A stretch of DNA of 64,000 nt from an uncultured Mycoplasmatota bacterium (lineage in GTDB: Bacteria > Bacillota_I > Bacilli_A > RF39 > UBA660), in NCBI GenBank assembly GCA_946497955.1, contig CAMMMH010000003.1:10316-74315 (forward strand), given 5' to 3'. Of this stretch, positions 2,204 to 64,000 are shown piece by piece. Numbering within the stretch: position 1 is the first letter of the stretch; every line of letters starts with the position of its first letter. Below the pieces are notes generated by a model. The model was given only the letters and a program-made list of their open reading frames with translations, made no database searches and was not told the origin of the DNA. The translations under genes were made by a program, and so were the position numbers.

Positions 2204-4804
2204 TTGAAAGATGCTTATACTAAAAGTAGTAATGATATTTTAGAAGAGTTAAGTAGTAAAAAAGATGGATTAAATGAAAAAGAAGTAACTAAAAGATTAG
2301 AAAAATATGGTTATAATGAAATAGAAGCTAAGAAACCTAAAACTATATTAGAAATGGTTATAGATGGGCTTAAAGATAAAATGATTTTAATACTTTTACT
2401 TGCATCAATTCTTTCCTTTATACTAGGAGAAGTAGCAGAAGGGGTAGTTATATTAATAATTATCTTTATAAATTCTTTAATTAGTATAATTCAAGAGAAG
2501 AAAGCAATGAATGCTATTATTGCTTTAAGAAATATGAATGCTCCTCATACTACTGTTATAAGAGGTGGTAAGAAGAAAAATATTTTAACTAAAGAAGTAG
2601 TTCTTGGAGATATTGTTTATCTAGAAGATGGTAATATTGTACCTGCAGATATTAGATTAATAGAAGAGAATGGTTTAAAAGTAGATGAATCATCTCTTAC
2701 AGGAGAAAGTGTTCCTGTAGAAAAAGATGCTAATATTACTTTAGATAAAAATACACCTTTAGCAGATAGAGTTAATATGGTTTATTCATCAACTATTATT
2801 TCTTATGGTACTGCTATTGGAGTTGTAGTTGGAACAGCTACTAATACAGAAGTAGGTTCTATTGCTACAATGTTAGATAATACTGATAGCCTAGATACTC
2901 CACTTAAAAGAAAGCTTAATAAAGTTGGAGAAGTCTTAAGTATTATTGGTATTGTAGTCGCTATTCTCATATTTATAATAGGGCTTATTTATGGTAAAGA
3001 CTTTATCTCTTTATTAATGGTATCTATATCTTTAGCTATCTCTGTAATACCAGAAGGATTACCTGCTACGGCAACTATTGTAATGGCTTTAGGTGTATCT
3101 CGTATGGCTAAGAAAAATGCTTTAGTAAAGAAACTTCCTGCTGTTGAAGCTTTAGGTAGTGCTACTGTTATTTGTTCTGATAAGACTGGTACTCTTACTT
3201 TAAATAAAATGACAGTTGTAAAAAGTACTTTATATAGTGATATTATTAATAAAAATGATGAGAATACTTTTAGTGATGATTTGATAAAGTGTGCTTGTTT
3301 ATGTAATAATGCTTATATTGATAAAGATAAAGTAATAGGAGATCCTACAGAAGGATGTTTATTAACTTATGCTAAAAATAATGGTTATGATATTAAAGAT
3401 ATAAAAAGTAATAAAGTTTTATATGAACAAGCTTTTGACTCTGTTAGAAAAAGAATGAGTGCTGTCATTAAAGATGAAAAGGGATATTTAGTTTATTGTA
3501 AAGGAGCTCCTGAAGAGTTAATAGATGTATGTAGTTATGCTAGCATTAAAGGCAAGTTAGTTAAACTTACTAGTGAAGATAAGGATAAAATTAAAGATTA
3601 TTGTGTCACTATGTCTAGTAAAGGCTTAAGACTATTAGGCTTTGCTATGAAAAATATTGATACTCTTCCTAAAGAAGGGGATATGATAGAAGAAGATTTA
3701 ACTTTCATTGGTATTATGGGAATAATTGATCCACCACGTGAAGAAGTTAAACATGCTGTTAATACTTGTCATGAAGCAGGCATTAGAGTAATTATGATTA
3801 CAGGAGATCATAAATTAACTGCTCAGGAAATCGCTAAAGATCTTGGTATCTATAAAAAAGGTGATTTAGTAGTAGATGGGGAAACTTTAAGTAAAATGAG
3901 TGATTTAAAGCTTCGTAATACAATTAAAGATATTTCTGTTTTTGCTAGAGTTACACCTCAAGATAAACTTAGAATTGTTAATGCTTTAAAGAAAAACAAA
4001 GAAATAGTTGCTATGACAGGGGATGGTGTTAATGATGCTCCTGCTTTAAAGAAAGCTGATATTGGTGTTGCCATGGGTATTACTGGTACAGATGTTTCAA
4101 AAGAAGCAGCAGCTATGATTTTATTAGACGATAATTTTGCAACGATTGAAGTAGCTATTAAAGAAGGAAGAAGAGTATACCGCAATATTCAAAAAGTAAT
4201 TCAATATTTATTAGCAGGTAATATTGCAGAAGTATTAACTATATTTGTCTCTATAATATTTAACTTACCAAGTCCTTTACTTGCTGTTCATATCTTATTT
4301 ATTAATCTTGTAACTGATACCCTTCCATCTCTTGCTCTTGGAATAGATCCTGCTAGTCCTAATATTATGCATCATAAACCAGTTAAAGAAGGAAGCTTGT
4401 TTGAGCATGGTCTTGTCTTTAGAATAGCCTTTTATGGAATCTATCTTGCTATTATCACTTTAACTGCATATTTTATAGGAGTAAATGATAGTTATGATGT
4501 TGGTATGACAATGGCCTTTACAGTTTTATGTTTATCACAGATATTCCATTCTCTAAACCAAAGTTCAAGTATAACATCTCTATTTAGTAAAGATTATCCA
4601 AGGAATAAAATGTTATTCCTTTCTATGGTAGGATCTATATTATTCCTTGTAATTGTCTTATTTATAACACCTATAAGAGAATTCTTCTCACTTAGTGTAT
4701 TAAGTGGAAATGAATGGTTAATAGTTATATTACTATCTTTATCACCAATTCTTATAGTTGAAATACTTAAAGCGATAAAAAGAAGATTAGGAATGGATAG
4801 TTAG
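2204..4804 (+). CDS. P-type (P2-type, Ca2+-transporting-like) cation ATPase
   Basis: CSDKTGTLT phosphorylation site, TGES actuator motif, [21 protein letters not shown] hinge, PEGLP in TM4, about 10 TM segments. TTG start 9 nt after AGGAGA; there is no in-frame ATG nearby. Confidence 0.9.
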
Positions 4805-32743: not shown

Positions 32744-32812
32744 TAAAGTCTTTTTTTGTTGTTATTTTTCTTCTTTTGTGATAGTATAAAGAAACAGAAA
32801 AGAGGAAGAGTT

Positions 32813-33535
32813 ATGAAAGTAATTAGAGATGAAGATAAAAATAGTAATAAGTATATAATGAGGTTTGAAGTAGAAAAAGGTACTATTCAAAAAAATACTA
32901 GAAAAAATGCTTCTGCTGTTGAGATTAAAACTGAAGACTATAATAATCTAGTAGTTTATATGGCTAATGGTTCTAAACCTAGGTATACTAATATAGAAGA
33001 GAATAAAGTAAGGTTATTAGAATTAAGACATCAGCAATTTTTAAAGAATAAAGGGAAGTTAAAGAGTTTGAAAGACTATAAAACTATCTTTAATGTTGTC
33101 TCTGGCGGAATTGCAGGTATTATTGTAGGTGTGACTTCTATGGCTACTAGTTCAATTACAATTCTTTTGCAGTGTTCTGCTATTGCTTTTGTTTTAGCAT
33201 ATACTTCTGCTCTTGTAGTTAATAAAGTAATAAATAGTAAAATAAATGATATAAATAAATATGCTTTATTTTTCGAAAATGAAGATATATTTAAAGATGT
33301 AGATTTAGATGATTCTAATATTTTAGAAAGAGTTAAAAGTAAAGATAAAGCAATAATTGCAGAAATAAAACAAGAAAAAGATAAAGAGAATGAAAAAACA
33401 TATTTCGATAATAATAGTATTGATGGCCTATCTTTAGATGCTTTAAGAAAGATAAAAGCTAATATAGAAAGAGAAAACTATTTAGGTTTAGTTAGGACTG
33501 ATGAGAAAACTAAAGGTAAGTCATATGTAAAGTAA
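32813..33535 (+). CDS. Hypothetical membrane protein
   Basis: ATG 32813 follows GAGGAAGAG. Two central TM helices. No family recognised. Confidence 0.5.
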   Translation: MKVIRDEDKNSNKYIMRFEVEKGTIQKNTRKNASAVEIKTEDYNNLVVYMANGSKPRYTNIEENKVRLLELRHQQFLKNKGKLKSLKDYKTIFNVVSGGIAGIIVGVTSMATSSITILLQCSAIAFVLAYTSALVVNKVINSKINDINKYALFFENEDIFKDVDLDDSNILERVKSKDKAIIAEIKQEKDKENEKTYFDNNSIDGLSLDALRKIKANIERENYLGLVRTDEKTKGKSYVK

Positions 33536-33592: not shown

Positions 33593-33731
33593 ATTTTCTC
33601 TAGAGGAATTTTCAAAATTAAAGGTAGTAAATACCTCCAATTACTAATTTTCGTAAATTGCAATGTATTTTAACTTATGTTAGAGTGTAGGCATCTGCAG
33701 ATAAATCATTATTGTTGGAGGTAAAAATATT

Positions 33732-34622
33732 ATGAAACAAAAAGAAAATAAAGAAAAGAATGAAAAGAGTGAGAAGAAATTCATTAGTCTTTTATCAGAC
33801 ACTACATTTAAACACTTCTTTAAAATAGAAGACTATAAAGAATTCTTTAATACTATTATAAAACCATATACTAATATGGATATTAGTGAGTTTAGATTAT
33901 ATGATACTGAATTTAATAGTGGTAATGAAAAACGTGATTATCGTTTAGATATATTACTTGAAAGTGATAAATGTGATTTAATTATATTAATAGAGATGAA
34001 TCAGTTTCCTAGTGAAGAGACAAAATATAAAGATAGATTATATGTATACGGCTTACTTGCTAAAAGCCTAAATAGTGGTGAAGATATAAAGAAGAAGAAA
34101 GTCATTCAAATAAACTTTAATAAAGAAAAGCATCCTTATGTAAGTAAAGGTTCATTCTATTTAATGGATAAGGTAACTAATAGAGAAATAAAAGATTTCG
34201 AAATATACGAAGTGTATCTTGAAAATTACAAAGGAATAAGATATAATGGAGACAATAAAGAAGAAGCATATCTATCTTTATTTACTGCTACATCTTATGA
34301 AGAGTTAAGAGAAATAGCAGGAGATGATAAGGAGGCATTAAAGATTGTGGATGAATTAGAAAGACTAGGACTTGATGATAAGTTTGGATTAGCATATGAT
34401 AATGAATTGATGCAGAAAAAAATGATTAATACCGCTCGTAATTGGGGTTATGATGATGGTAAAGAAGCTGGGAAAGCTGAAGGACTAGAAGAAGGTGCTA
34501 AGGCAGAAAAAATATCTATTGCTAAAAAACTTCTTAATATAGGTACACCTAAAGAAGACATAATAAAGGTTACTGGACTAAGTATAGAAGATTTAAATAA
34601 CTTATTAGAAGATAATGATTAG
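33732..34622 (+). CDS. Rpn-family recombination-promoting nuclease / 'putative transposase' (PD-(D/E)XK), locus 1
   Basis: N-terminal FISLLSDTTFKHFFK. Nuclease core RDYRLDILLE...LILIEMNQ (D...ExQ). C-terminal helical tail ...AKAEKISIAKKLLNIGTPKEDIIKVTGLSIEDLNNLL typical of the TIGR01784-like family. Confidence 0.75.
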   Translation: MKQKENKEKNEKSEKKFISLLSDTTFKHFFKIEDYKEFFNTIIKPYTNMDISEFRLYDTEFNSGNEKRDYRLDILLESDKCDLIILIEMNQFPSEETKYKDRLYVYGLLAKSLNSGEDIKKKKVIQINFNKEKHPYVSKGSFYLMDKVTNREIKDFEIYEVYLENYKGIRYNGDNKEEAYLSLFTATSYEELREIAGDDKEALKIVDELERLGLDDKFGLAYDNELMQKKMINTARNWGYDDGKEAGKAEGLEEGAKAEKISIAKKLLNIGTPKEDIIKVTGLSIEDLNNLLEDND

Positions 34623-34654
34623 ACAATTAATAACTGTAAGGAGGCTACAATATT

Positions 34655-34915
34655 ATGAGCAAATCAGAAAATTTATGGCTTGATGATGATTTTGGATTAG
34701 CATATGATAATGAGATGATGCAGAAAAAAATGATTAATACCGCTCGTAATTGGGGTTATGATGATGGTAAGGCAGATGGTGCTAAGGCAGAAAAAATAGA
34801 AATTGCTAAAAATCTTCTTAATATAGGTACACCTAAAGAAGATATAATAAAAGTTACAGGTTTAAGTGAAGATGAGATAAATAATTTACTAGAAGAGTTA
34901 AAGAAAGAAGCTTAA
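34655..34915 (+). CDS. Stand-alone copy of the Rpn C-terminal domain (86 aa)
   Basis: Own RBS TAAGGAGGC 10 nt upstream of the ATG. Re-encodes residues ~206-296 of the upstream gene. A 55-nt run is perfectly identical (34408-34462 = 34716-34770). Lacks the EAGKAEGLEE segment. Confidence 0.7.
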   Translation: MSKSENLWLDDDFGLAYDNEMMQKKMINTARNWGYDDGKADGAKAEKIEIAKNLLNIGTPKEDIIKVTGLSEDEINNLLEELKKEA

Positions 34916-34952
34916 TAACTTCTTTCTTTAATCCTAAAAATGAGGTGCTGAT

Positions 34953-37238
34953 ATGGATTTTAAATTTACTGATAATTCTATTTATATTGTTCCTAATAGT
35001 TTAAAATTAAAACTATTAGATAAGTTGTCAAAAGAAAGAAAAATTTATAATATAACTTTTATAAGTTTAGAAGAATTAGAAAAACATTATTTCTTTGATA
35101 TAAAAGAAGATGCTTTACTATATCTTTTAGATAAGACTAATGAGAATATAGATGTGTTAAGACTTATGTTAGGAAATCTTTATAAAATAGAAATTACTAA
35201 AGAATATAGGGAGTCTAAATTAAATAATCTTAAGAGTTTATATTATGACTTAAAAAATAATAACTATCTAATATTTGATAAAGGTTATATTGATTATTTA
35301 TTAACTAAAAACATCTTTATCTTAGGTTATAGTATGCTAGAGGCATATCAAAGAGATATGTTAGATAGTATTAATACTAACTATTTAGATATTAGTGGCA
35401 ATTTATCTATAGATACTGTATATAAATATCATTCTATGAAAGATGAAGTTATAGGTACGGCTTTAAAGATAAGAGAACTTAATAGTAAAGGTGTTAGTTA
35501 TAATAAAATCTTTCTAGCGGGTGTTGACAATAGTTATAACTATTTACTTAAAACTATTCTTTCTATGTTTGATATACCTTTATACCTTAAATCTACTAGT
35601 AAACTAACTTCTTTAATAAGTGTTAAAGAGTATCTAAAAGATAAAGATATTAATCATATTAAAGATATTAATTTAAAAGCTAAGATTATGAAAATAAATG
35701 ATGATTTAACTTATGCTAAGAATAGTAAATATTATGATATTCTTTTAAAAGATAGACTAGAAAAGGCTTCAATGGACAGTATAGAGTTAGTAGAGTCTGT
35801 TAAAGTCTTAAATGAAGCATTAGATATTCCTTATCTAGTTAGTGATGATGAATACTTGTTTGCCCTAGGTTTTAATCAAAATCATTTACCTAAAATATAT
35901 AAAGACGAAGAGTACTTAAGTGATAATTTAAAGAATAAATGTAATTTAAATACCTCTACTATTAAAAATAAATTGAGTAAAGATAATCTAGTTAAAGTCC
36001 TAGGAACTATTAAAAACCTAACAATATCATATAAACTAACATCATTAACTGGAGAATATGCTAAATCTAGTTTATTAAATGAACTTAATTTAAAAGAAGT
36101 AGATAGTCTTAATTATAATTATAATTATAGTAGAGACTTTAATAATTATAGAGTAAGTAGTGTCTTAGATAATTATTATAAATATCATGAGAAAGATAAA
36201 GATTTTGACTTTCTAACTACTAATGTAGATACAAGTAAATATACTAGCTTTGATCATAAATTTAAAGGTATTAATAGAGAGGTTACTCCTTATAACTTAT
36301 CTTACTCAAGTATAGATGATCTTGCTAAGTGTCCTTTTAAATACTATTTAAAATATATCTTAAAATTAGATAGCTTTGAAGAAAATTTTAGTACAAAAAT
36401 AGGTAATATCTTTCATAGTGTTTTAAAAGACAGTTATAATGATAACTTCTCTTTTGATGTTGCTCTAAATATTGCCTTAAAGGATAATCCTTTAGAAAAA
36501 GATGAGGCTGTTTTATTTAGAAGATTAGAAAGTGAGTTAGAGAAAATAGTTAATTATAATAAAGAGGTAGAAAAAAGAAGTTTTCTTACTGAGTTTTATG
36601 GTGAAAAGAGATTAGAGATACCTCTTGGTAACCATGCAACTTTAAAAGGCTTTATTGATAAGATACTCTTTAAAGAATTTCATGATAAAACTTATTATGC
36701 TGTTTTTGATTATAAGACAGGTAGTGCAACCCTAAACTTAGATTATTTAGATGAGGGACTATATTTACAACTACCATTATATATTTATCTAATTAATAAA
36801 AGTAATTTGTTTTCTAATCCTACCTTTGTTGGTTTCTTTTATCAGTACTTATTACAAAACTATAAAGATAAAGAAGAACAACTTAAGAATTTAAAACTAG
36901 TAGGTTATACTACTGATGATAAAGTAATACTTTCCTATTTAGATGAAGACTATGAGACTAATTCTTTTGTTAAAGGGTTAAGTGTAAAAAAAGATGGAGA
37001 GTTATCTAGTAGAAGTAAAGTATTAAGTGATAGTGAAGTAGAAGATATAATGAACTCTATTAATAAAGCTTTAGATAAATCTCTTAACATAATAGATAAT
37101 AATCTCTTTGATATCGCTCCTAAAGTAATTAATAATAAAAATATTTCTTGCGAGTTTTGTCCCTTTAAAGAAGTATGTTTTGTAAGTCCTAGTGACTATG
37201 TTTATCTTGATAAGAAAGAAGGTGAAGAGAATGCCTAA
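34953..37238 (+). CDS. addB: Helicase-nuclease complex subunit AddB/RexB (no N-terminal Walker A)
   Basis: C-terminal RecB-type nuclease (GFIDKILF...FDYKTG) bracketed by Cys residues (CPFKYY; CEFCPFKEVC = Fe-S staple). Directly upstream of and overlapping addA. Confidence 0.85.
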   Translation: MDFKFTDNSIYIVPNSLKLKLLDKLSKERKIYNITFISLEELEKHYFFDIKEDALLYLLDKTNENIDVLRLMLGNLYKIEITKEYRESKLNNLKSLYYDLKNNNYLIFDKGYIDYLLTKNIFILGYSMLEAYQRDMLDSINTNYLDISGNLSIDTVYKYHSMKDEVIGTALKIRELNSKGVSYNKIFLAGVDNSYNYLLKTILSMFDIPLYLKSTSKLTSLISVKEYLKDKDINHIKDINLKAKIMKINDDLTYAKNSKYYDILLKDRLEKASMDSIELVESVKVLNEALDIPYLVSDDEYLFALGFNQNHLPKIYKDEEYLSDNLKNKCNLNTSTIKNKLSKDNLVKVLGTIKNLTISYKLTSLTGEYAKSSLLNELNLKEVDSLNYNYNYSRDFNNYRVSSVLDNYYKYHEKDKDFDFLTTNVDTSKYTSFDHKFKGINREVTPYNLSYSSIDDLAKCPFKYYLKYILKLDSFEENFSTKIGNIFHSVLKDSYNDNFSFDVALNIALKDNPLEKDEAVLFRRLESELEKIVNYNKEVEKRSFLTEFYGEKRLEIPLGNHATLKGFIDKILFKEFHDKTYYAVFDYKTGSATLNLDYLDEGLYLQLPLYIYLINKSNLFSNPTFVGFFYQYLLQNYKDKEEQLKNLKLVGYTTDDKVILSYLDEDYETNSFVKGLSVKKDGELSSRSKVLSDSEVEDIMNSINKALDKSLNIIDNNLFDIAPKVINNKNISCEFCPFKEVCFVSPSDYVYLDKKEGEENA

Positions 37239-62546: not shown

Positions 62547-63353
62547 ATGAATAAAGTACCTAGATTTATATCATTAATGTCAGATACAACTGCAAAAGCT
62601 TTACTTAAAGATAAACGCTATAGTTGGTTCTATGAAGATATTATTAAATTTAAAACTAGTATTGATTTAACGAAATATAAGTTAGTTGATGCTGAGATGA
62701 ATACTGGTAATAAAGCTAAAGATTATAGAGCAGATTTAATTTATGAGAAAGGAAAACACCTTATTAATCTAGAATTAAATCAGTTTATCCACGAATACAC
62801 TTTAACAAAGAATCTATATTATGCTTTAAGATTAGCCGGTTATGGTTACTTATCAGGAGAAAATTATGATGAAAGATATGTAACTCAAATAAATTTAAAT
62901 AATAAAGTAGGAAATGATGGTAATAAAGATAATAGTTTAATAGATTATAAGTTACAAGATCCTAAATATGCTAAGATATTAAAAAATATAAATATTGTAG
63001 ATATATATCTTTTAAATTACAAAGGAATAAGATATAATGGAACTAACAAATATGAAACTTACTTATCTATGTTAACAGCAAACTCTTATGAAGAGATGGA
63101 AGAAATAGTAGGAGATTTAGAAGAAGGGAGAATAATTATGGAAAAGTTAAAAGAATTAGGATTAGATGATAAATTTGGCATGTACTATGATGCTGAGATA
63201 GTGCATAAGAAAGAAGTAAATTCTGCTAGAAAAGAAGGTGCTAATAATGAGAGAAAATCTATTGCTAAAGCGATGTTAAAAGCAGGAGAAAGTGTTAGTA
63301 AAGTAATGAACTATACTGGCTTAAATAAAAAAGAAATTAAAATGTTAATGTGA
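62547..63353 (+). CDS. Rpn-family recombination-promoting nuclease / 'putative transposase' (PD-(D/E)XK), locus 2
   Basis: FISLMSDTTAKALLK, KDYRADLIYE...INLELNQ, C-terminal ...KSIAKAMLKAGESVSKVMNYTGLNKKEIKMLM. ATG 62547 follows GGAGGA. Paralog of 33732-34622. Confidence 0.75.
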   Translation: MNKVPRFISLMSDTTAKALLKDKRYSWFYEDIIKFKTSIDLTKYKLVDAEMNTGNKAKDYRADLIYEKGKHLINLELNQFIHEYTLTKNLYYALRLAGYGYLSGENYDERYVTQINLNNKVGNDGNKDNSLIDYKLQDPKYAKILKNINIVDIYLLNYKGIRYNGTNKYETYLSMLTANSYEEMEEIVGDLEEGRIIMEKLKELGLDDKFGMYYDAEIVHKKEVNSARKEGANNERKSIAKAMLKAGESVSKVMNYTGLNKKEIKMLM

Positions 63354-63369
63354 AGAAAGAATAATAATT

Positions 63370-63584
63370 ATGAAAAAACTAAAAGAATTAGGTTTAGATG
63401 ATAAATTTGGAATGCTTTATGATGTAGAGATAGTACAAAAGAAATAATTAAATTCTGCTAGAAAAGAAGGTGCTAAAGAAAGAGAAAAATCTATTGCAAA
63501 GAATCTTCTTAAAATGAACTATCTGTTAAAGGTGTAATGAAAGCAACTGGACTATCTAAAAAACAAATAACTACCTTGATGTAG
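63370..63584 (+). pseudogene. Decayed stand-alone copy of the Rpn C-terminal domain (locus 2)
   Basis: MKKLKELGLDDKFGMLYDVEIVQKK*, with the TAA at 63445-63447. It then reads LNSARKEGAKEREKSIAKNLLK..., has a frameshift near 63520, and continues LSVKGVMKATGLSKKQITTLM*. Collinear with residues ~198-268 of the upstream gene. Confidence 0.65.
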
Positions 63585-63632: not shown

Positions 63633-64000
63633 GGTTCTTCCGAAAGTTTGCGGATTAACCAATAATAGGAAGTAGGATATATTCCTACTTTTTATTATGA
63701 ATTTAATACTTGTTTAACAATCTCTTCTAAAGCAAAGTTGTCTAAAGTGGACAAAAAACATAGATAAGTTTTCTTAAAAAGGTTGCATAATTTCTGTTTT
63801 CCATATACAATACGTTTGATAAGTTTGAATTTGTTGTTGTTACCTTCAACAAATCCAGAATTTATTTCAGAAGATATTGCGTTTCTAACAGCGGCAATAT
63901 CTTTTTTTATACCATTACAAAATGATGGAATATCATCTTTATATAACTCTATAAATATATCTAATAATTCTGTATCATTACCAAATATAATATCATGGAA
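63633..64000 (-). mobile_element. End of an ISL3-like insertion sequence (continues beyond the window)
   Basis: Candidate terminal inverted repeat GGTTCTTCCGAAAGTTTGCGG at 63633, then a hairpin (AGTAGGA/TCCTACT, 63672-63689), then the 3' end of the transposase gene on the minus strand. Confidence 0.5.
63695..64000 (-). CDS. ISL3-family transposase, C-terminal 101 aa (partial; not in the ORF track because the start lies outside the window)
   Basis: Minus-strand frame open from 64000 to the stop at 63697-63695: ...IAAVRNAISSEINSGFVEGNNNKFKLIKRIVYGKQKLCNLFKKTYLCF..., matching the N(G/S)xxEGxNNKxKxxKRxxYG C-terminal signature of ISL3 transposases. Confidence 0.65.
   Translation of the reverse strand, partial: FHDIIFGNDTELLDIFIELYKDDIPSFCNGIKKDIAAVRNAISSEINSGFVEGNNNKFKLIKRIVYGKQKLCNLFKKTYLCFLSTLDNFALEEIVKQVLNS

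Follow-up and report, generated by a model that had tools for sequence, protein, structure and literature searches.

A divergent Rpn-family nuclease gene followed by a free-standing copy of its RpnS-type C-terminal domain

Background

In E. coli, Rpn genes act as toxin-antitoxin and defence genes (Zhong et al. 2023, PNAS; PMC10400941): an internal start gives RpnS, a small protein that inhibits the full-length nuclease, and the C-domain that the two share carries hypervariable repeats of 4 amino acids (aa). Here we describe a locus of this family in a stretch of 64,000 nucleotides (nt), called the window below, from contig CAMMMH010000003.1 of an uncultured Mycoplasmatota bacterium (G+C 26.5%; closest relatives uncultured gut Bacilli known from metagenome-assembled genomes (MAGs), including Candidatus Onthousia species). 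A gene for a full-length Rpn-type protein, rpnL, is followed there by rpnSs, a free-standing gene for a copy of the C-terminal domain. The reading that we favour, and consider fairly probable, is that of a three-product Rpn toxin-antitoxin or defence gene, in which a nested RpnS would be the cognate small protein and rpnSs an alternative allele of the C-domain.

Several further results of the E. coli study (PMC10400941) bear on this layout. Free-standing downstream genes, named RpnSs, were described there: ypaA (rpnESs) after rpnE and rpnCSs after rpnC. Tagged RpnESs protein was detected, and rpnSs was reported to disappear either through deletion or by becoming fused to the N-domain, as is repeated in Koonin's commentary (PMC10400984). 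Adding one repeat to RpnC or to RpnCS abolished neutralisation, and variation of the repeats was argued to prevent cross-inhibition. Moreover, stand-alone DUF4351 (PF14261) proteins were named as separately encoded RpnS. Our literature search on RpnS after 2023 returned nothing beyond this study and the commentary. An earlier note on this DNA had taken the two-gene form to be undescribed in the family, but rpnE-ypaA and rpnC-rpnCSs were already published.

The rpnL-rpnSs locus

The locus consists of the following parts:

33732-34622, + strand: rpnL, full-length Rpn-family nuclease gene, 296 aa (open reading frame (ORF) and TIGR01784 match)
rpnL residues ~1-200: N-terminal PD-(D/E)XK-type domain with conserved D23, K27, E60, D73 and E88
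rpnL residues 206-296: C-terminal RpnS-type domain
34623-34654, + strand: junction of rpnL and rpnSs, 32 nt, carrying the rpnSs Shine-Dalgarno site
34655-34915, + strand: rpnSs, free-standing RpnS-type gene of 'type A', 86 aa, N-terminus MSKSENLWLDD
34461-34496, + strand: tetrad-repeat region of rpnL and the nested rpnS, KEAG-KAEG-LEEG, three 4-aa repeats (residues 244-255)
34769-34780, + strand: single tetrad repeat of rpnSs, KADG

GGAGG at 33717-33721 precedes the rpnL start, and TAAGGAGGC lies upstream of the rpnSs ATG at 34655, with the Shine-Dalgarno AAGGAGG at 34638-34644. The coordinates and the Shine-Dalgarno site were confirmed as the earlier note had given them, namely a 296-aa ORF followed 32 nt later by an 86-aa ORF with a strong ribosome-binding site of its own. 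The note had also stated that the short ORF repeats the C-terminus of the long one, and this held for the last ~85 residues: BLASTP aligned long residues 210-294 with short residues 5-81 at 64 identical positions of 85 (75%), with one 8-aa gap (E=1e-40). As judged from this alignment, the similarity is far beyond chance. A 55-nt run of perfect identity (34408-34462 = 34716-34770) was likewise verified and can be extended on neither side. What had been described as a clean loss of the 10-aa segment EAGKAEGLEE is a net difference of 8 aa, that is, of two tetrads (3 versus 1; KEAG-KAEG-LEEG versus KADG), net 24 nt in frame.

The short protein matches the C-terminal part of TIGR01784 (E=9e-8) and has 193 relatives at E<=0.001, most of the 120 listed being 76-102 aa long in length steps of 4. 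Its AlphaFold2 (AF2) model is helical, with a predicted local distance difference test (pLDDT) score of 71-84 over residues 41-86. The top Protein Data Bank (PDB) match of this model in Foldseek is E. coli RpnA-S (7th0; probability 1.00, TM 0.80, root-mean-square deviation 0.6 A), over 38 columns and at a database E-value of 0.058. The Pfam search gave no significant match for the 86-aa protein, and PF14261 (DUF4351) was not among its matches at E<=1; a precomputed database tag assigns it to PF27070.1 (family name unconfirmed). Read from its frame and its predicted ribosome-binding site, the short ORF is a free-standing, intact copy of the RpnS-type C-terminal domain of rpnL.

RpnL as a divergent Rpn protein

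A hidden Markov model search agreed with the earlier assignment of the long ORF to the Rpn type. TIGR01784, the NCBIfam model 'Rpn family recombination-promoting nuclease/putative transposase', matches residues 23-290 at model positions 3-272/273 (E=3.7e-11), spanning the model end to end with 43.4 bits, under the curated cut-off of 52.1 bits. An exhaustive representative search found 1006 relatives of the long protein. PF12784 (PDDEXK_2) was matched by 8 of 31 full-length relatives of 25-47% identity (best 1.5e-23), and through these distant relatives the long protein is bridged to PDDEXK_2. Among the aligned relatives E88 never varies, and D23, K27, E60 and D73 hardly do (D73 at least 90%). 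The nuclease motif reads ..RLD73IL..IE88MN.., with N as third motif residue (E88-M-N), a position at which this alignment shows Q for E. coli RpnE (IEHQ).

For the C-terminus, a small three-helix domain in the RpnS family, NF007361 (the RpnA model, C-terminal) was matched by the long protein at E=0.0019 and by the short protein at 0.00068, and the long sequence matched 7th0 over residues 253-288 (E=0.016). The AF2 alignment for the long protein was shallow, with 35 sequences at 81-92% identity plus one paralogue, and Foldseek with the resulting model returned RpnA-S as top match, for the C-terminus, and otherwise only low-probability restriction-enzyme matches. Since this model is poor, the nuclease fold is without structural confirmation and we do not count the Foldseek result as evidence. 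By homology, the long ORF is a divergent member of the Rpn (PDDEXK_2/TIGR01784) nuclease family.

A predicted nested rpnS in rpnL

We also looked at the internal start that produces RpnS in E. coli, and a candidate equivalent lies in rpnL:

34329-34349, + strand: internal translation initiation site, AAGGAGG at 34329-34335, an 11-nt spacer and GTG at 34347-34349 (codon V206)
34347-34622, + strand: nested rpnS, predicted 91 aa (M/VDELERLGLDD...LLEDND), in frame with rpnL, deduced from the conserved internal start

The sequence TAAGGAGGC stands before both GTG 34347 and ATG 34655. In 52 related copies the codons of the internal site are AAG in 50 and GAG in 2, followed by GAG in all 52, and the start codon is GTG in 51 and TTG in 1. 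Background use in the same genes is much more mixed (AAG 29% of Lys, GAG 20% of Glu, GTG 16% of Val), and the synonymous sites next to the internal start vary among the related copies. The second Rpn gene of the window, ~40% identical, has GGGAG and an ATG at the homologous codon. The ATG codons of M227 and M231, as alternative nested starts, would agree with the 8-20 residues that precede the repeats in E. coli, but we rejected them because neither has a Shine-Dalgarno site in front of it; the free-standing copies of other loci and the decayed copy at 63370 also contradict them, since all of these begin at the position of VDELERL/MEKLKEL.

By analogy with E. coli, the nested rpnS is predicted to be the cognate antitoxin, or inhibitor, of RpnL. 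As the internal start is conserved in rpnL, the nested rpnS appears to be retained, so that rpnSs would be an addition and not a replacement. This agrees with one half of the earlier proposal that the small inhibitor is encoded 'additionally (or instead)' as a separate gene, and speaks against the other half.

One-gene and two-gene forms and their C-domains

We compared the window with Rpn loci of related genomes and MAGs, numbered from L001 onward. From a metagenome scan with the short protein, L050-L053 were close enough and were used, and L054-L129, mostly distant relatives of the C-domain, were left out. Two copies of a conserved block stand out:

34408-34462, + strand: conserved nucleotide block, copy 1 (..ATGCAGAAAAAAATGATTAATACCGCTCGTAATTGGGG..), directly 5' of the variable repeats; candidate exchange site
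34716-34770, + strand: conserved nucleotide block, copy 2, inside rpnSs

The small gene is closer to a C-domain of another genome than to its neighbour: its DNA is 77% identical to the adjacent C-domain and 87% to the fused C-domain of L007, which occupies the same chromosomal locus. L007 has this C-domain as the fused end of a full-length Rpn gene, with addB immediately downstream. Window 34637-35400 (rpnSs and addB) is 92.7% identical to L007 561-1338, the alignment beginning exactly at the Shine-Dalgarno site. The window carries a unit of ~308 nt, 34329-34636, that L007 lacks and that begins exactly at the internal Shine-Dalgarno site. We therefore read rpnSs as having arisen because a ~308-nt unit of internal Shine-Dalgarno site, start, C-domain and stop was doubled in tandem (34329-34636; 34637 onwards).

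One-gene and two-gene forms interconvert at three chromosomal loci, and their downstream flanks align from the first base. At the second locus the two-gene forms are L015, L039 and L050 and the one-gene forms L045 and L046; L045 combines the spacer and the tail of the L015 small gene, and L046 the spacer of the L015 long gene with the tail of the small gene. The third locus has the two-gene L004 and the one-gene L003, L027 and L017. Crossovers between the forms fall either in the tail or ahead of the repeats, in the conserved block. At these three loci, one-gene forms of related genomes have the C-domain version of the small gene, which suggests that rpnSs acts as an exchangeable C-domain cassette.

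The type-A small gene (MSKSENLWL) also behaves as a unit. Across several species, three different chromosomal loci keep its N-terminus, ATG and Shine-Dalgarno site; each of the 8 genes that precede a type-A gene ends in ..NLLEDN[DN], and the junction is nearly invariant, its first 28 nt being invariant in the window, L020, L032 and L004. The 'type B' downstream copy is a straight duplicate starting at ..KEALKIVDELERL. RpnCSs and RpnESs are reported to cluster each with the RpnS of the gene just before it; the small gene of the window does not.

The synonymous sites of the block are conserved in 54 related copies (CAG 53/54, CGT 54/54, ACC 39/54), and these three codons are unusual for a genome of 26% G+C. 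A recent duplication or gene conversion was rejected as the sole explanation of the 55-nt identity, as the block is conserved across all paralogues. The block may be a site of recombination or carry some other signal at the nucleotide level, and it is a plausible crossover site, as in L045.

Tetrad repeats and the neighbouring nuclease

In the family, the spacer from ..GYDDG to IAK measures 7, 11, 15, 19 or 23 aa (7+4n), built of tetrads of K-x-x-G or L-E-E-G type. A downstream copy of the C-domain follows 16 Rpn genes: its spacer equals that of the long gene in 3 (L002, L042, L050) and differs in 8, and 5 copies are broken or truncated. The differing long/small spacers are 19/11 (window and L020), 11/7, 15/7, 19/15, 23/19/11, 19/23 and 19/11. 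At some loci the free-standing C-domain genes are themselves in tandem. L002 (3897-4513) has two after the long gene, all three copies having spacer 23 and different tails, and L038 (1095-1677) has spacers of 23, 19 and 11.

The best surviving alternative to the reading we favour is that the 86-aa protein is an antidote in trans, dedicated to the adjacent RpnL and either adding antitoxin dosage or uncoupling antitoxin expression. It would fit the position of rpnSs, directly downstream on the same strand with a strong Shine-Dalgarno site and no intervening terminator: no hairpin or terminator-like site was found between the genes by terminator scan and folding, the junction folding no better than shuffled sequence (z=+0.9). 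The 75% identity to the neighbouring C-domain, which includes the identical ..MQKKMINTARNWGYDDGK segment, and the three loci with equal spacers point the same way, and Koonin's commentary suggests that decoupling might add regulatory flexibility (PMC10400984).

On the other side, the two-tetrad mismatch is present here and in the ortholog L020. With the published repeat rule, by which a single added repeat abolished neutralisation in E. coli RpnC, the 86-aa protein is not expected to neutralise the adjacent RpnL; having 1 tetrad against 3, rpnSs is probably not its antidote. Furthermore, the long gene retains its own internal start, the small gene is closer to the fused C-domain of another genome, and in L020 RpnL is disrupted and the small gene intact, the reverse being true of L032. 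We consider this alternative rather unlikely. The earlier note's view of a hard-wired antidote of the adjacent nuclease is thus doubtful, given the retained internal start and the mismatch, even though a free-standing small gene is indeed there.

Maintenance and decay of the downstream copies

We asked whether the downstream copies look maintained. Among 18 surveyed, 13 are intact. As wholes, rpnSs and the adjacent C-domain differ by dS=0.31 and dN=0.14 (synonymous and nonsynonymous divergence; ratio 0.45), and the dN/dS of small genes (0.14-0.63) is similar to that of long-gene C-domains (0.06-0.49). The small gene of L004 is frameshifted within a G6 run; as this assembly is from nanopore reads, we did not count the frameshift as a real lesion. 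In L032 the orthologous small copy is frameshifted in an A-run and has a different tail, and L001 and L010 have truncated downstream copies. The window itself contains a second pair:

62547-63353, + strand: second Rpn-family gene, 268 aa from ATG 62547, ~40% identical to rpnL (tblastn)
63370-63584, + strand: decayed free-standing C-domain copy of the second Rpn gene, 16 nt downstream of it

The internal GGGAG and ATG of the second long gene stand at ..IIMEKLKELGLDD.., and the decayed copy begins at the codon homologous to this internal Met (MKKLKELGLDDKFG..). An in-frame TAA (63445-63447) interrupts the copy, ..GVMKATGLSKKQITTLM* can be reached only through a frameshift, and the Shine-Dalgarno site is degraded. 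The 3' end of an ISL3-family transposase gene (PF01610, E=4.6e-7) adjoins this pair at 63700-64000 on the - strand and runs off the window end.

More doubtful than a dedicated antidote is a second alternative, in which the small ORF is a functionless by-product of unequal or paralogue recombination, intact by chance or youth. The frameshifted L032 copy, the truncated L001 and L010 copies, the decay in the second pair of the window and the RefSeq annotation of E. coli ypaA as a pseudogene all fit such a scar. Yet 13 of 18 copies are intact at dS ~0.3 in a genome of 26% G+C, where stops arise easily; the type-A N-terminus, ATG and Shine-Dalgarno site are kept at three loci in several species; the dN/dS of the small genes resembles that of the long-gene C-domains; and 193 related small proteins are in the database, RpnESs itself having been detected in E. 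coli (PMC10400941). The earlier note's description of an intact and maintained copy therefore agrees with most copies and with dN/dS below 1, and fails for L032 and the second pair; the frameshifts at orthologous loci that it would have taken as the mark of a scar are present in part.

Least likely, and in our opinion improbable, is that rpnSs is an orphan antitoxin that neutralises or buffers a repeat-matched RpnL elsewhere and links the Rpn copies into a network, for which speak the multi-copy nature of the family (at least 4 loci in the complete MAG OZ006970.1 and 2 in the 64 kb window, the source-genome data for this comparison) and MAG CASEWH, where the L039 small gene (spacer 7) matches the spacer of the L017 long gene (7), and against which stand the different tails of this sole matched case and the published argument that repeat variation prevents cross-inhibition (PMC10400941).

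Variant relatives

In L020 (1153-2881; MAG CAWVIV01) the orthologous RpnL is split by an insertion of ~1.9 kb with opposite-strand ORFs of 390 and 103 aa, Rpn residues 94-174 being present on both sides. We take the insertion ORF to resemble an IS4/IS1634-type transposase; the Pfam search gave no match for it.

Four loci from three MAGs, L027 (~3495-3505), L028, L034 and L046, have the 13-nt variant TACGGGAGGAATA in place of TACAAAGGAATA, at a site homologous to window 34226-34237. The added base (+1) splits the gene at codon 167, and many database proteins of 121-138 aa begin just upstream of this split. GGG-AGG-A in the variant also makes GGGAGG, and resembles a +1 slippery site with the rare AGG codon. 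We may be dealing with programmed frameshifting, with a split form of the gene or with an allele that is a pseudogene.

Expression context

Two further features may bear on transcription of the locus:

34894-34935, + strand: A+T-rich hairpin over the stop codon of rpnSs, main stem 14 bp (fold -16.2 kcal/mol, z=-3.2)
34219-34247, + strand: promoter-like site in rpnL, TTGAAA-17 nt-TATAAT, 11/12 matches (sigma-70-like consensus scan only)

The hairpin is conserved in L020 and L032, and was not reported by the terminator scan because no U-tract follows it. It is possibly the end of an rpnL-rpnSs transcript, just before the addB ribosome-binding site. The promoter-like site lies ~100 nt upstream of the internal start, over the invariant codons for ..LENYKGIRYN..; in a window so rich in A+T, matches of this kind are frequent (18 found versus 11.5 expected). 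All E. coli rpn genes have internal transcription start sites (PMC10400941), and the site might, on its consensus match, be a promoter for a short rpnS or rpnS-rpnSs transcript.

Between rpmF and the Rpn pair, a 259-aa ORF (32756-33535, + strand) has a predicted hydrophobic middle segment and no significant family match; a TM7S3/TM198-like match was sub-threshold (E=0.0025).

Interpretation

In the three-product reading that we favour, rpnL would encode a PD-(D/E)XK DNA endonuclease with a helical C-terminal dimerisation domain, and initiation at AAGGAGG and GTG 34347 would give a 91-aa RpnS with the same sequence as the RpnL C-domain. Going by the analogy of E. coli RpnA/B/C, this RpnS would pair with that C-domain via the long repeat-bearing helix and block the nuclease until release by a trigger, which is phage infection in E. 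coli. Toxicity of RpnL, inhibition by RpnS and protection from phages are assumed for this lineage on the same analogy. From its repeats and its relatives, rpnSs is more likely an expressed, register-shifted RpnS paralogue that serves as the alternative C-domain allele of the locus. Recombination with it would give the toxin and the nested antitoxin another repeat number and tail at the same time, and its product may dimerise with itself or with a repeat-matched paralogue.

A number of points weigh against this reading. The neighbours are housekeeping genes (secDF, relA/spoT, dtd, rpmF, addB/addA), along with an AI-2E transporter and a yceD-like gene, and a defence-island context was not found at the Rpn pair, although lying among defence genes is a statistical and not a defining feature of the family. 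The long protein has no match in the Pfam search and scores under the NCBI curated cut-off, and PADLOC models (PADLOC-DB v2.0.0, 2023) gave none for three Rpn proteins. Its AF2 model is poor (pLDDT 56.8). Its third motif residue is N, where characterised relatives have Q or K, so that we only assume RpnL to be catalytically competent. A single experiment in E. coli, on RpnC with and without one repeat, underlies the repeat-number rule, which may not hold in this lineage; between the start and the repeats there are ~38 residues here, more than the 8-20 of E. coli. The data do not reveal the direction of changes between one-gene and two-gene forms, and with five broken downstream copies some of the pattern is plain turnover.

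As a speculative extension, which we think unlikely, free-standing rpnSs genes could form a stock of alternative C-domain cassettes, and not of spare antidotes, by which the specificity register of a defence nuclease is switched at appreciable frequency in populations of these gut Bacilli. A crossover in the 55-nt block or in the tail would then change repeat number and tail in toxin and nested antitoxin in one step, and the switching would resemble that of surface antigens by silent cassettes. Before any such exchange, the small protein, expressed and mismatched, might tune Rpn paralogues.

For the study of what RpnSs does, the lineage near Candidatus Onthousia offers a natural series, with many paralogues, one-gene and two-gene alleles of the same locus, recombinants with readable crossover points, and downstream copies that mostly mismatch the repeat number of the neighbour. 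This makes it possible to test whether repeat register alone sets RpnL-RpnS specificity, and whether RpnSs is an antidote, a cross-regulator or a recombination cassette. Since these Rpn genes fall under curated thresholds and are missed by PADLOC-DB v2.0.0, they are likely missed in surveys of defence genes in gut metagenomes that rely on such models.

Comparison with known systems

Silent-cassette and segment-exchange systems, such as pilE/pilS gene conversion and shufflons, are comparable by analogy only. They share with this locus a partial, promoter-distal copy of the variable 3' part, a conserved flanking block and natural recombinants. In contrast, the downstream copy here has its own start and looks expressed, exchange takes the form of deletion or duplication between direct repeats and not of non-reciprocal conversion, and frequent or regulated switching is without support here.

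The stand-alone DUF4351 (PF14261) proteins are likewise small free-standing equivalents of the Rpn C-terminal domain, from which the 86-aa protein differs by the lack of a PF14261 match at E<=1. With RpnA/B/C/P2, the 'gene-within-gene' toxin-antitoxin defence systems, the locus shares the PD-(D/E)XK nuclease, the helical C-domain that matches RpnA-S (7th0) by sequence and model, the internal-start small protein and the tetrads in a long helix. It differs in having an E-x-N motif where those have E-x-Q, in lacking a defence island and in escaping recognition by PADLOC and Pfam searches.

The closest likeness is to rpnE-ypaA. In both, a free-standing C-domain copy lies downstream of an Rpn gene that has an internal start, on the same strand and at a distance of 12 nt in K-12 and of 32 nt here. 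In both, the internal Shine-Dalgarno site and start are present a second time at the head of this copy (in K-12 the internal AAAAGGAGAGATTAATG is duplicated before ypaA), and the copy is 75% identical to the neighbouring C-domain (RpnE residues 244-299 for ypaA) and differs from it by whole tetrads, one in K-12 (KLEG) and two here. Loss by deletion or fusion, as reported for E. coli, is seen here at three loci. The differences are that the N-domain belongs to a divergent, sub-threshold PDDEXK_2/TIGR01784 branch and that of E. coli to PF04754, that D73 and E88 are conserved here whereas E. coli RpnE is catalytically inactive, and that the small gene has a distinct N-terminus, MSKSENLWL instead of VDELERLGL. 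Moreover, the small gene and the ..NLLEDND stop-junction form a module at 3 or more loci, so that the small gene does not simply cluster with its own upstream gene, unlike the E. coli report. In conclusion, the two-gene layout described here is a new example of the arrangement known from E. coli rpnE-ypaA.

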